A stretch of 64,000 nucleotides of DNA from the IMG/VR virus record IMGVR_UViG_2585427970_000001; one strand, written 5' to 3'. The position numbers and the translations under genes were made by a program. The stretch is from a virus (taxonomy: Duplodnaviria; Heunggongvirae; Uroviricota; Caudoviricetes). Shown in pieces: positions 58,864 through 64,000 of the stretch. Numbering within the stretch: the stretch's first letter is position 1; the number at the start of each line of letters is the position of its first letter. A model generated the notes under the pieces. It worked only from the letters and a program-made list of their open reading frames with translations, made no database searches and had not been told where the DNA came from.

Positions 58864-61800
58864 TATGAATAAAATATATAAAGTGATATGGAACCACAGT
58901 ACTCAGCAGTGGGATGTGGTTTCAGAACTTACAGGTAACAAAAAAAAATGTAAATCTGCTCGCTTAAACCTGGCGTTAGCCGCTGCTCTTTTTACCGGAT
59001 CTATGGCGGTTAATTGCAGCAGCGCATTCGCGGATATTTCTCTTGATTCGGCATGGCGTCCGGCACAGAACAACAACCTTGTTGGGGCCGAGACTGTTAA
59101 CGGCACGACGGAAAATATCATAGGGCCGATATCGGTCGTTTCTGGTTCTTCTGGTCTCGTTGGCATGACTGTTGATGAAGCAAAAGCAGAGGGATACATT
59201 ACGGCTGGGGATGATCTTACCGGATTATTATATATTGACACAGGCGGAAGAACCAAAGCCCTTCAGTACTGGGATGCTGCGACCGGCGCGTACAGAACGG
59301 TACAGGTATATGACAATGACGCTTTTTCTCAGCGGGCTGCAGGCTCATCTGCGAATGAACTCATTTCCGGTTTTGCGCCTGATGCTGGTTTTTTCTATAA
59401 AACCCGTTTTGTTACTGTAACCAATGGTGGTACGGCCAATATTGATGTTGGCGCAGATTTTATTGGTCGCTATTTCAAAGATACTCAGCTCGCTGTTGCT
59501 GATGGAGCTGGATCAACTGTTAACTGGAATTCTGAAAATGAGTTCTACTTGCAGGCCGCAGCAACTTCTACAAACGGGCTCACATATACCGCCACAATTG
59601 ACTCAAAAGCATATGCTGGCACATTTACTGACTGGCAGGGACAACAGCATCAGGTTAATTCACAGGCAGACTTACAGCAATATAATGATTATCTGACTCA
59701 GGCGATTGTTGACGGTAAGCTGACTGCCTCTCAGTATGAGACTGAATTTAACAGGGCTATTATAACCACCACGCATACGTATGATGTTGATCGTACTGCA
59801 GGGGGTAAAATTGATCCTGCTATATATCAGGCTGGTATCGGAACACTTGCTGTACTTGAAGCTAGAAATGGTGGAACTGCACGACTCAGTTCAACCGGCA
59901 AATTAACAGGCATATTGCCGAGTGTTGGGCGTGGAGCTGGTATCATTGCTCGCTCGGGCGGTACAGGTATCAACGAGGGTATTATAGATGCTACAGGTAT
60001 TGCGATGCGTGCATACGGTAACAGCACCATTGTTAATGATGGCACTATCTATTCAGGGATCAACAATTCTAAACACGGACGACATGGTGAGGGAATGGTG
60101 GCAATTGATGCCGATTCCCTCGCAATAAATAATGGTGTTATTAATATCCGGCCATATAAAGTTGCAACAGTTAATCAGGATGGCATCAACACGGCAATGC
60201 TAGTGGCTGGTGGCGGTGAAGGAATTAATAATGGCACCATCAATATTACGGCGGATGCTTCAGTTATTGACAGTAAGGGACTAACCCGGGGGATCAGTGT
60301 GGGTGACGGAGGTTCCTTTACCAATGCATCCACTGGCAAAATCACCGTCGGTGTGGCTGAAGATGGCAGCGCAGCGCATTCAGCTGTCGGCTCTGTTGCG
60401 ATTGAGGTTGCGCAAGGGGCAACCCGTGTTATTAATGAAGGGACAATTCTCCTGGGGGAAGGGGCTCAGGGGAACTACGGTATTTCAGCATCGAACGTCG
60501 GAGCAGTAAATACAGTCATCAATAAAGGGACTATCACAGTTGAAGGGCATGACAGCGATACACCTGCACTGAATGTCGGCATGTTTGCAAATAACAGCAC
60601 CGGGCTGAAAAACACCGGGGTTATTAATGTGAATGGCCTGAACAGTGCCGGATTACAGGTCATAAACGGAGGCCAGATAGCGTCTGACGGTACTGTAAAT
60701 GTTGGTGGCGTGGATATCAGTAGTGGTTTCCGTAACTATGGTGCATGGGTGGAAGGCACCGGAAGCCGTGTTGATATATCCGGCGAAATTAGCCTTACTG
60801 GTGACGGTGCAGTGGGGGTTTTTGCCAAAGATGGCGGAGACCTGACCCTGTCAGGGAATGGTGCGGTGGTATTCGGTGGCAGTAACCAGGTGGGGTTTTA
60901 TGTCTACGGTGATGGTTCCACCATTCATAATACCGGGAACAGTGTTATGGATGTTTCCACCGAAAATTCAACGTTATTCCGTATTGCCAGCGGGGCGGTA
61001 TACCGGGGGGGCACAGGGGCATCCTCTGATCTGACGGCATCCGGTAAGAACTCGTATGCGCTTGTTGCCACTGGCAGGTCTGACACAGGCACTGCCTCAA
61101 CCGTCACATCCGGAGGGATGACCATCAACCTGACGGGAGAGGGGGCGACTGCTGTCTTGGTAGAGGGCGGGGCACAGGGCTCAATTGACAGTAATGCCAC
61201 TATCAATATGGATAATGCCAGCGCGATTGCCGGTATTGCGGATGGCAACGGGTATGATATTTCCGGCAATCTTATTAATCCAAAAGACAAGACTACATTA
61301 TTAACAGCAGGTGCTCAGCTGAGCTCTTCTCAGGATAAAGTAACCGGGTATATCGCCCGCAATGGGGCAACCCTGGAGAACACCGGTAATATCACCTTTA
61401 CCGGAAAGAACACGACCGGTATCCGGGTCGAGGAAGGCGCTGCTGGCACCAACAGTGGAAATATCCTCGTTCAGGATGGCGGTGTGGGATTACTTGCCCG
61501 CGGCTCACAGGACGCCACGACCATTAATAACACCGGTAATCTGGTCCTCAGTGGGGGGAATAATGCCAACCGTACTACCGGGATTAAAGCTTCCGGTGCA
61601 GCAACAACAGTTAATATGACCGCTGGCACACTCGATCTGCAGGGGCAGGGGGCGATTGGCGTTGAGGTCAGTGAACAGGGAACGGTGAATCTTGAGGGGA
61701 CTGCCATTCCTAAGTTTGCTGCTGACGATTCCGGCATTACCGATCAGATTGCTTTCCGTATTATCGGAGATGGTGCAACCATCAATACGAAGGTTGCACA

Positions 61801-64000
61801 GGGAACGCTGCTGGAAGCCAGTGGGCAGCGGTCAGTGCTCTTCCGTATTGAAGACGGGGCAAAACAGATTGGCTCTCTGCAGATGAAAACCTCCGGGACA
61901 GGCAGCCGGGGGATCTGGGCCACCGGTAAAGGCAGTGATGTACAGGCGGAGGCCGGCAGTGATTTCCAGATCCTGGGGGACCTAGCTCAGGGATTGTATG
62001 TCACTGGCGGTGCAACAGCGACCCTGAAACAGGGGATATCCGTTGATCTTGTGGGTGACGGGGCCGTGGTCGCGGAAGTGGACGGTAATGAGTACGCGCT
62101 CGATGGCAGTATTACACAAACGAATACTGGCTCGGTTATTACCAATGAGGCAGATATCTCTTCGCCGCTGAATAATGCCAAGGGCTTTATTACGCGTAAT
62201 CAGGGACTGTTGATTAACAGCGGCAACATTGATTTCACTGCCGGTACCGATAATATCGGCGTCTGGGTTGATAACGGTCGCTTTGAAAATACGGGAAACC
62301 GTATTGCGGTCAATGGTGTTGCTTTATTTGTTGAAGGCGCACAGTCTCAGATCACCAGCACGGGAGGGGATATCGTCGCTGTGGACGGTGAGGCTGCCAT
62401 TAAGCTGGGGGCGGGCGCGTCACTGAACCTGGCAGGGAGTGGGCTGGGAACGATTGAGGGCCAGAAAAATGCACATGGCATCCTGCTGGATACAGGGGCT
62501 GTGGGGCTGGTTATTGATGGTGCGAAAATTAATGTGAATGCTGCAGGTGCGGTTGGTCACGGGATTGAGAACCGCGCAGAAATTGAAGGCATTCAGTTAA
62601 CCAATACGACTGAAATTAATGTGGCTGATGGCATTGGTGTGCGTACTTCAGCTTCGCTGGCTAAGACCAACAGCGGCACTATTAATGTAGATGGCAGCGG
62701 AATTGCACTGGCGTTCCGGAAAGCTGACGGAAGTGAAACCGATAATAACCTGGATATGTCTGACTCCGGCGGATTAGTCATTAATCTGAAAGGCACGGGC
62801 GGCACGGGTATTTTCGCCAACACTAAAGATGGTGCTGTCGTGAAGAGTGGTGCAAGTGTCAATGTTACACAGGCCGATGGCGGTTCCGCTCTGGTGGTTA
62901 ACAATGCGGCCAGTGAAGTGGTTCAGAGCGGTAATCTCATTTCTGTTTCTCTGAATCATGCTGTAGTGGATGCATCAAAAGCACTGTCCTTTACCAATAC
63001 AGGTCAGATTAAAGCCGCGTCCGCTGCCGGGACTGCAATGGCGTTTGATGACGCCGTGAATACCACCGTACTGAATGACAGCGGTGCTGAAATTCAGGGG
63101 GTTGTGGCTCTGAACGGCGGTGATAACACATTTACCAATAAAGGCAGTATTACCGGAACCGTCAGTGCAAAAGATGGCAACAACACATTGTTATTTGATG
63201 ACGGCAGCACACTGACAGGTGAAGCGACTGCAGGAAACGGCAATAACAATGTAACGCTTAACGGCAGGACACATGTTGACCAGGTGATTGCAGGTACAGG
63301 ACAGAATACCTTCACCATTAAAGGTGAAGGGGCAACCTGGGATCTGCTGGATGGCGGGCAGGGAGATTCTGATTCCCTGATTTTTGATAACGCCATTCAT
63401 ACGCTGGATTCTGCTGCAAAGATACAGAACTTTGAACATGTCGGGCTGAAAAATGGTTCCGTTGTCACCCTGAAGGAGGCACTGGTGCTGACGGACGGTG
63501 GCGCCGGGGCGGGCTCTGTCGATATTGAATCGGGCAGTGAACTGAGCATTACCCCTGCCACAGCAGGCGACTTTACCTTTGATCCATTGTTAACGGGCAA
63601 AGGCACGCTGTCCGCTCAGCTTGATGCCGACACCTCTGCTTTTGAATTCAGCCATAACGTCGGGGATCAGTTTGCCGGCACCCTGAAACTGGGCACCAGC
63701 AGTTTTGCGCTGGAAGGGCTGAATACGAAGGGGTTGACCCATGCCATGTTGGTGTCTGAAACCGGAAATATCACAACGGTTGGCTCCGGTGTTCAGAGGA
63801 TTGGCGGTCTTGGATTCAGTGGCGGAACACTGAATTTTGGTTCTGTCAGCCCGGGAGATATTGTTGCCGGCAACCGTATTGAAACCTCTGCCGCAGGTAC
63901 ACTGGATCTTCGCGGTCAGGGCACAATTCAGGTCACCATGCCGGTGGTGGTTAATGATATTCCGGTGGTTGATACCCGTAAGAATCTGCTTGAGCAGGAC
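58864..64000 (+). CDS. Large autotransporter adhesin-like protein, 5' part (open to window end)
   Basis: Hand translation in frame 1 is open from ATG 58864 to the window end; extended signal peptide MNKIYKVIWNHSTQQWDVVSELT..; long Gly/Asn/Thr-rich repeats; not in track because no stop is reached. Confidence 0.7.
58939..58947 (+). repeat. A9 homopolymer inside autotransporter signal-peptide codons (KKK)
   Basis: ggtaac-aaaaaaaaa-tgt at codons 26-28. Confidence 0.6.

Follow-up and report, generated by a model that had tools for sequence, protein, structure and literature searches.

A UpaE-family autotransporter adhesin gene carried as cargo by a P1-like phage-plasmid, and a nine-adenine tract in its signal-peptide codons

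In a 64,000-nucleotide stretch of DNA from IMG/VR virus record IMGVR_UViG_2585427970_000001 (Caudoviricetes), referred to here as the window, we found that the reading frame running off the 3' end very probably belongs to a gene for a type Va autotransporter adhesin of the UpaE/AIDA-I group, about 2640 amino acids (aa) in length, and covers its 5' two-thirds. The gene is carried as cargo by a P1-like element, and the run of nine adenines (A9) near its start is best taken as a by-product of coding. The main features are given below with their positions, strand, and evidence.

58865..64000, plus strand: UpaE-family AIDA-I-type adhesin gene, 5' 65% (1712 of ~2641 codons), cut by the window end (open reading frame (ORF), Pfam, homologues).
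58865..59032, plus strand: extended signal peptide with ESPR, n-region (K26-K28/K30/R33), h-region, and predicted cleavage site AFA/D (Pfam ESPR and sequence).
58940..58948, plus strand: A9 homopolymer forming codons 26-28, AAA AAA AAA (KKK), in the n-region of the signal peptide (sequence).

The start codon ATG is located at 58865-58867 (surrounding letters ...GAAGGTATTTATGAATAAAATA...), with a Shine-Dalgarno motif, GAAGG, ahead of it at 58855-58859. From 58865, the frame continues for 1712 sense codons with no stop before the window ends at 64000; the chance of such a stop-free run, (61/64)^1712 or ~e^-82, is negligible. An earlier reading made from the letters only (the sequence-only reading) had described this open frame and its extent of 1712 codons to the window end, which holds, but had placed its start at 58864; translation from that position was rejected, since the frame is full of stops. 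It had also remarked that the gene is missing from the ORF track, and this is indeed the case because the ORF tool omits frames that run off the window end.

The product begins with MNKIYKVIWNHSTQQWDVVSEL..., and the longer N-terminal stretch reads MNKIYKVIWNHSTQQWDVVSELTGNKKKCKSARLNLALAAALFTGSMAVNCSSAFA/DISL. Residues 1-48 match the Pfam family ESPR (PF13018) with E=1.6e-14 and 54.5 bits against a cut-off of 25, which confirms the extended signal peptide of type V autotransporters that had been proposed from the sequence; cleavage is predicted after A56 from the -3,-1 rule. Past the signal peptide, the protein is rich in Gly (15%), Ala (11%), Thr (10%), Ser (7.8%), and Asn (7.8%). Long Gly/Asn/Thr-rich repeats had been expected here; the bias in composition is real but the repeats are not, as TRF detected no tandem repeat in the adhesin and BLASTP self-comparison no internal repeat. 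A beta-helical passenger is suggested by this composition together with the precomputed Pfam BigA_3rd match on homologues. NCBIfam gave no match on the partial window protein, family matches being obtained only with the full-length homologue, and a PDB sequence search with the adhesin passenger returned no match.

The identity of the family was established from the relatives. Megablast of positions 58000-64000 against 5,426 complete E. coli genomes returned two near-identical loci, on plasmid pAPEC201602 (NZ_CP127299; IncY, P1-like; 97.6%) and on the chromosome of E. coli SY038 (NZ_CM185151), and ~247 more distant ones. Most of the distant loci among the matches listed are named “phase-variable autotransporter adhesin UpaE” in RefSeq, whereas the closest copies, those of pAPEC201602 and SY038, bear only a generic autotransporter name. 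Copy 1 in SY038 is an intact ORF of 2641 aa with 99.3% DNA identity and 99.0% protein identity over the window part; it contains PATR repeats, the autochaperone AC_1 (PF18883) at residues 2165-2269, and a TIGR01414 beta-barrel at residues 2179-2641 (E=1.9e-120), and its C-terminus shows strong matches to the AIDA-I, MisL, ShdA, and YfaL models. IMG/VR contig L048 has another intact copy, of 2635 aa, at the P1 position that the window copy occupies. With the ESPR in the window and the autochaperone and beta-barrel in the full-length homologues, the assignment to a large type V autotransporter adhesin gene is supported, and the beta-barrel of the window copy presumably lies past the window end.

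The window protein is collinear with canonical UpaE (strain 2016C-3878), with 78% identity over 1712 aa and no rearrangement. The identity differs by region, from 54-61% in residues 1-500 to 71-99% beyond, with 96-99% at residues ~1100-1400. By sequence comparison, the gene belongs to the known UpaE family as a divergent allele, with a passenger whose N-terminal tip has diverged. In uropathogenic E. coli CFT073, UpaE falls in the same length class (~2640 aa; Battaglioli et al. 2018, PMC6083910), and shares with the present system an ESPR signal peptide in which residues 26-28 form a basic triplet, the C-terminal autochaperone and barrel (in the full-length homologues), and a 531-nt OmpH-like gene directly downstream. 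Unlike UpaE, which is encoded in the chromosomal dsdC-argW island, the window gene is located on a P1-like phage-plasmid, has PapI/PapB-type genes upstream in place of ipuB-ipuA-ipuS-ipuR, and carries A9 where UpaE has AGAAAAAAA. Experiments have placed UpaE on the cell surface and demonstrated that it promotes biofilm formation and adhesion to proteins of the extracellular matrix (PMC6083910). By analogy, the ESPR-type extended signal peptide would send the window adhesin through Sec export and be cleaved after A56, the C-terminal beta-barrel (outside the window) would insert into the outer membrane, and the autochaperone would aid folding of the Gly/Ala/Thr/Asn-rich beta-helical passenger at the cell surface, where the passenger may mediate extracellular-matrix adhesion and biofilm formation as for UpaE.

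The adhesin gene belongs to cargo and not to P1 backbone, in agreement with the sequence-only reading. The window from 45000 to 57277 (dnaB/ban ... pmgS) matches P1, RCS47, and other punaviruses at 98% identity, and blastn against P1 (AF234172) gives matches at 56901-57277 and 57292-57377; the homology, which is patchy at its end, stops at ~57377 inside the P1 pap phosphatase gene. The same stretch of pap in pAPEC201602 is annotated by RefSeq as “incomplete, missing C-terminus”, and the same P1 junction is present in pAPEC201602 and in a contig of GCA_025279815 (L053). Between this junction and the adhesin gene lie the following features.

57158..57377, plus strand: remnant of the P1 pap (phosphatase) gene and left cargo junction (blastn against AF234172).
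57537..57568, no strand: perfect hairpin with 14-bp arms, terminator-like, downstream of the PapI-like gene (inverted-repeat / terminator prediction).
57619..57831, minus strand: PapI/FaeA-family regulator gene, 70 aa (Pfam FaeA PF04703, E=5.8e-16).
57832..58211, no strand: divergent intergenic regulatory region, 380 bp, 26.6% GC (sequence).
58212..58559, plus strand: PapB/FocB-family regulator gene, 115 aa (Pfam PapB PF03333, E=1.5e-27; RefSeq).
58560..58864, plus strand: AT-rich leader, 305 bp, from the PapB-like gene to the adhesin gene (sequence).

The PapI-like gene is called “FaeA/PapI family transcriptional regulator” by RefSeq in both pAPEC201602 and SY038. For the PapB-like gene, the RefSeq start at 58212 gives a product of 115 aa, but the frame also has an earlier ATG at 58056, from which it stays open (58056-58559, 167 aa). 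As the Pfam PapB match sets in at residue 14 of the 115-aa product, this shorter form is more plausible. No plus-strand terminator was predicted in the 305-bp leader that separates the PapB-like and adhesin genes.

The right part of the module lies outside the window and was read from relatives. In pAPEC201602, SY038, and L048, a 531-nt OmpH/Skp-like gene comes after the adhesin gene, and after that a small LuxR/GerE-type helix-turn-helix (HTH) gene; the OmpH-like gene is directly 3' of the adhesin gene at every locus inspected, and its product is a putative dedicated periplasmic chaperone. The LuxR-type gene was considered as an orthologue of IpuR and rejected, as the likeness is confined to the HTH (E=0.005). 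On the right side, pAPEC201602 returns to P1 backbone at the 3' end of humD, just ahead of phd/doc, and on this evidence the cargo is, as read from the sequences, a module of ~10.8 kb (PapI-like, PapB-like, adhesin, OmpH/Skp-like, and LuxR-type genes) that replaces pap(3')-pmgT-pmgU-pmgV-upfM-upfN-upfO-hot-lxr-humD in a P1-like (IncY) element. The interval corresponds to ~14379-25187 of locus L001 against ~84088-87892 of P1 AF234172, and the genes lost include pmgT, pmgU, and pmgV, which are putative morphogenetic genes, and most of humD. According to the P1 GenBank annotation, the sequences bordering this interval are common to plasmids carrying hsd loci, and the interval is therefore a known, recurrent exchange point.

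The cargo was not found in 50,697 phage records, save for one mis-bounded prophage. This is phage GER2 (L047, MG710528.1), the only substantial match for the adhesin in the phage database, in which the product is labelled “long tail fiber proximal subunit”. We rejected it as a phage-borne adhesin because the record includes a chromosomal ipuA-ipuR-upaE-ompH flank beside attL. In its interval 2691-12775, upaE is split in two and ipuA is labelled “integrasse”, which looks like an error of prophage boundary and of annotation.

The nine-adenine run was confirmed at codons 26-28 (58940-58948). Homopolymer runs of at least nine are expected ~0.7 times in 64 kb and two were seen, so that A9 is not statistically remarkable; the second is T9 at 929-937, right before a GATC, which is intergenic with no overlapping ORF of at least 60 aa. 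The A9 allele is present in eight copies, namely the window, pAPEC201602, SY038 copies 1 and 2, IMG/VR contigs L049 and L050, GCA_002971045 (L052), and GCA_025279815 (L053), and all eight have exactly nine adenines in frame. A length-tolerant pattern scan of metagenome contigs yielded 38 true instances, 31 with AGAAAAAAA (R-K-K) and seven with AAGAAAAAA (K-K-K), and among these 38 there was neither an A9 nor any A-run of altered length. Together with two IMG/VR contigs and three complete genomes, they make up 43 relatives, which break the run as AGA AAA AAA or AAG AAA AAA and keep the basic residues. The totals over the 51 copies are 35 A7, 8 A6, and 8 A9, with no polymorphism in A-run length at the level of consensus assemblies, where minority variants would be hidden. 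One human gut metagenome contig (L045, 2.8x coverage) has, at ~3864 on the reverse complement, an extra T after its A7 run (AGAAAAAAATTGTAA), which shifts the frame and may be an assembly error.

These results indicate that the conserved feature is the basic triplet at residues 26-28 (KKK or RKK), in an n-region with K30 and R33, and that the homopolymer itself is not conserved. The share of AAA among lysine codons is 72% in the adhesin gene and 65% in the backbone, and with the former usage a KKK triplet would be written as A9 with p ~0.38. The tract in this allele would have arisen through AGA/AAG-to-AAA changes, the AAA lysine codons giving the positive n-region, and in terms of its sequence context it is best explained as a by-product of lysine codon usage in the signal-peptide n-region and not as a dedicated phase-variation device.

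The sequence-only reading had regarded the tract as a classic slipped-strand switch, that is, a heritable contingency device in which A8 or A10 turns the adhesin OFF and reverse slippage turns it ON. The tract does lie early in the coding region, a change to A8 or A10 would stop translation at codons 29-34, A9 is the sole run of at least nine within a coding region of the window, and it is retained in SY038 copy 2 and L052 despite divergence at the synonymous sites that flank it. Moreover, in many bacteria transcriptional and replicative slippage become appreciable once an A/T run reaches nine, and such slippage-prone runs are counter-selected in coding regions (PMC1088944). However, the count of tract length across related copies, set beforehand as the test of this idea, was invariant at the assembly level: all eight A9 copies are exact and in frame, and the 43 relatives interrupt the run (A7 or A6) and show no length variant. 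Nor do the pseudogenised homologues implicate the tract, as these genes are broken at other sites; slippage at the tract was rejected as the cause of the annotated frameshifts, since pAPEC201602 is broken at ~nt 2695 (GGGGGGAAT -> GGGGGGAT) and strain A41 at ~nt 525-546. Mononucleotide coding repeats are not known to serve phase variation in E. coli with active mismatch repair, and this, like the frequency with which KKK is written as A9 at this codon usage, also counts against a heritable switch. Lav of Haemophilus influenzae likewise has a repeat tract in its 5' coding region (GCAA repeats; PMC9022572) whose change in length shifts the frame; unlike such repeat-variable autotransporters, in which tract length differs among isolates, the present family shows no polymorphism in its 51 copies and does not keep the run among orthologues. 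We thus consider a heritable switch very unlikely. An action of A9 on the RNA level, by polymerase slippage or by ribosome sliding on AAA, would cause non-heritable damping or noise in the adhesin output of this allele. Nine adenines are the documented threshold for productive transcriptional slippage, for example in T. thermophilus dnaX (PMC1088944), and both shifted frames stop within 1-6 codons; but the shifted frames encode no alternative product, and most family members keep the same protein motif with no such run, so that any slippage effect would be incidental to the allele and not a conserved design. This explanation appears unlikely, though less so than the heritable switch.

Upstream of the gene, two further routes to phase variation were weighed. 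The divergent PapI/FaeA and PapB genes and their 380-bp AT-rich intergenic region are arranged as in pap operons, and a Pap-type epigenetic switch would operate here through PapI, Lrp, and differential Dam methylation of two intergenic GATC sites. The hallmark of the Pap switch is two Dam GATC sites that lie within Lrp sites at a spacing of ~102 bp, but this defining pair is not present in the window, where the intergenic region contains a single GATC (57926); SY038 copies 1 and 2 and L052 read GATT at the aligned position and lack GATC in this region altogether. With these sites missing or not conserved, the Dam/Lrp switch was rejected as highly improbable. In other words, the cassette resembles those of the Pap family (papI-papB, faeA-faeB, sfaC-sfaB) in its homologous, divergent regulators and AT-rich intergenic region of ~0.4 kb, but unlike them it precedes a type V autotransporter instead of a chaperone-usher fimbrial operon and lacks a conserved Dam GATC pair. 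The other route is that of UpaE itself, whose known phase variation uses the ipuS invertible promoter (PMC6083910); the “phase-variable” name in RefSeq derives from CFT073, and the canonical locus has the order ipuB-ipuA-ipuR-upaE-ompH-like. An ipuS-like promoter in the window would have to be flipped in trans by tyrosine recombinases of the host (FimE, FimX, IpuA or IpuB). But tblastn and blastn found no similarity in the window to ipuA, ipuB, ipuR, or the ipuS region, the PapI/PapB genes occupy the upstream region, and the only inverted-repeat matches upstream of the adhesin are imperfect and AT-rich, with no convincing bounded element. The invertible-element reading was therefore rejected, and we regard it as scarcely credible. 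Most likely, judging from adjacency, the adhesin gene is controlled at transcription in the ordinary way, with the PapB-family protein as activator and the PapI-like protein as co-regulator, in the manner of a cassette devoid of the classical Dam switch. PapB is known for cross-talk with fimbrial regulation, and the position of the PapB-like gene suggests that its product possibly takes part in such cross-talk as well.

Some points weigh against our reading of the locus as a UpaE-family adhesin gene whose A9 is a by-product of coding. The last third of the protein, including the barrel, falls outside the window, and the completeness of the window copy is presumed from homologues. A close relative, pAPEC201602, carries a pseudogene. 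The role as an adhesin is transferred from UpaE, to which the first 500 aa, likely the binding tip, are only 54-61% identical. The regulatory role of the PapI and PapB homologues is assigned from adjacency. Finally, A9 is at a slippage-prone length, and an incidental, leaky, allele-specific heterogeneity of expression is possible.

The module is rare. It was present in one of 72,556 PLSDB plasmids, in four IMG/VR viral contigs, and in two further E. coli draft assemblies, and the arrangement of PapI/PapB genes with the adhesin gene in two of the 5,426 complete E. coli genomes; a species-representative genome collection scanned with the tract pattern and with the PapB-like protein gave no match. 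The literature searched contained no account of a UpaE-like gene on P1-like elements, nor of PapI/PapB control of an autotransporter. The combination of Pap-type regulators with a UpaE-family adhesin on a P1-like phage-plasmid is rare, and apparently undescribed as well.

The closest relatives differ from the window in different parts. The avian E. coli plasmid pAPEC201602 has the same five-gene module, the same P1 junction, and A9, but its adhesin gene is a pseudogene with a 1-nt loss ~2.7 kb in. The SY038 chromosome has the same five-gene module with A9 in duplicate, but its copies are chromosomal with IS remnants at their flanks. The regulatory region (57362-58864) is 99.4% identical to pAPEC201602 and ~81% identical to SY038, whereas the adhesin gene (58865-64000) is 99.3% identical to SY038 copy 1 and 97.3% identical to pAPEC201602, and this mosaic pattern points to recombination between alleles. 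Similarly, IMG/VR contigs L048 and L051 have a window-like upstream region and first 60 nt followed by AGAAAAAAA / canonical-UpaE-like sequence, which suggests recombination within the 5' end of the adhesin gene.

Other arrangements were seen among the relatives. In SY038 (L003), the two modules are in tandem in one island (11558-22045 and 25566-30025+), with IS remnants between them, and adjoin an Ag43/Cah autotransporter gene. In GCA_002971045.1 (JZMM01000009, L052; 3531-5204), the adhesin gene that comes after the PapB-like gene is of the A9 allele and breaks off after 311 codons, where it abuts a type II secretion (gsp) cluster as a chromosomal deletion remnant of the module; upstream of the PapB-like gene, no PapI-like gene is called and an EAL-domain gene is present instead. 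In some chromosomes, those of strains A41 and A134_1EC (L004, L005), UpaE-like genes stand behind an ipuR-like HTH gene, with neither ipuA nor ipuB, and have another large autotransporter gene, an HTH gene, and an EAL-domain gene ahead of them, so that there are at least three different upstream control arrangements among UpaE-family loci.

The core finding is an ordinary one, a variant of the characterised E. coli adhesin UpaE, and its context is of modest interest. P1-like phage-plasmids are mostly discussed as carriers of resistance genes. The presence of a 10.8-kb adhesin module in such an element raises the possibility of horizontal spread of the adhesin by transduction or lysogeny, and lysogenic conversion by the phage-plasmid is possible. 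A more far-reaching view, which we hold to be distinctly improbable, is that a PapI/PapB cassette devoid of Dam sites has been recruited to a giant UpaE-family autotransporter on a transducible P1-like element, giving lysogenic conversion to adhesiveness, and that the new A9 adds stochastic expression by transcriptional or replicative slippage. If this were true, the recruited cassette, the phage-plasmid, and A9 slippage would together amount to a way of regulating a type V adhesin that has not been described before. With PapI/PapB regulators in place of the ipuS inversion switch, the same adhesin appears to be wired to different control systems.

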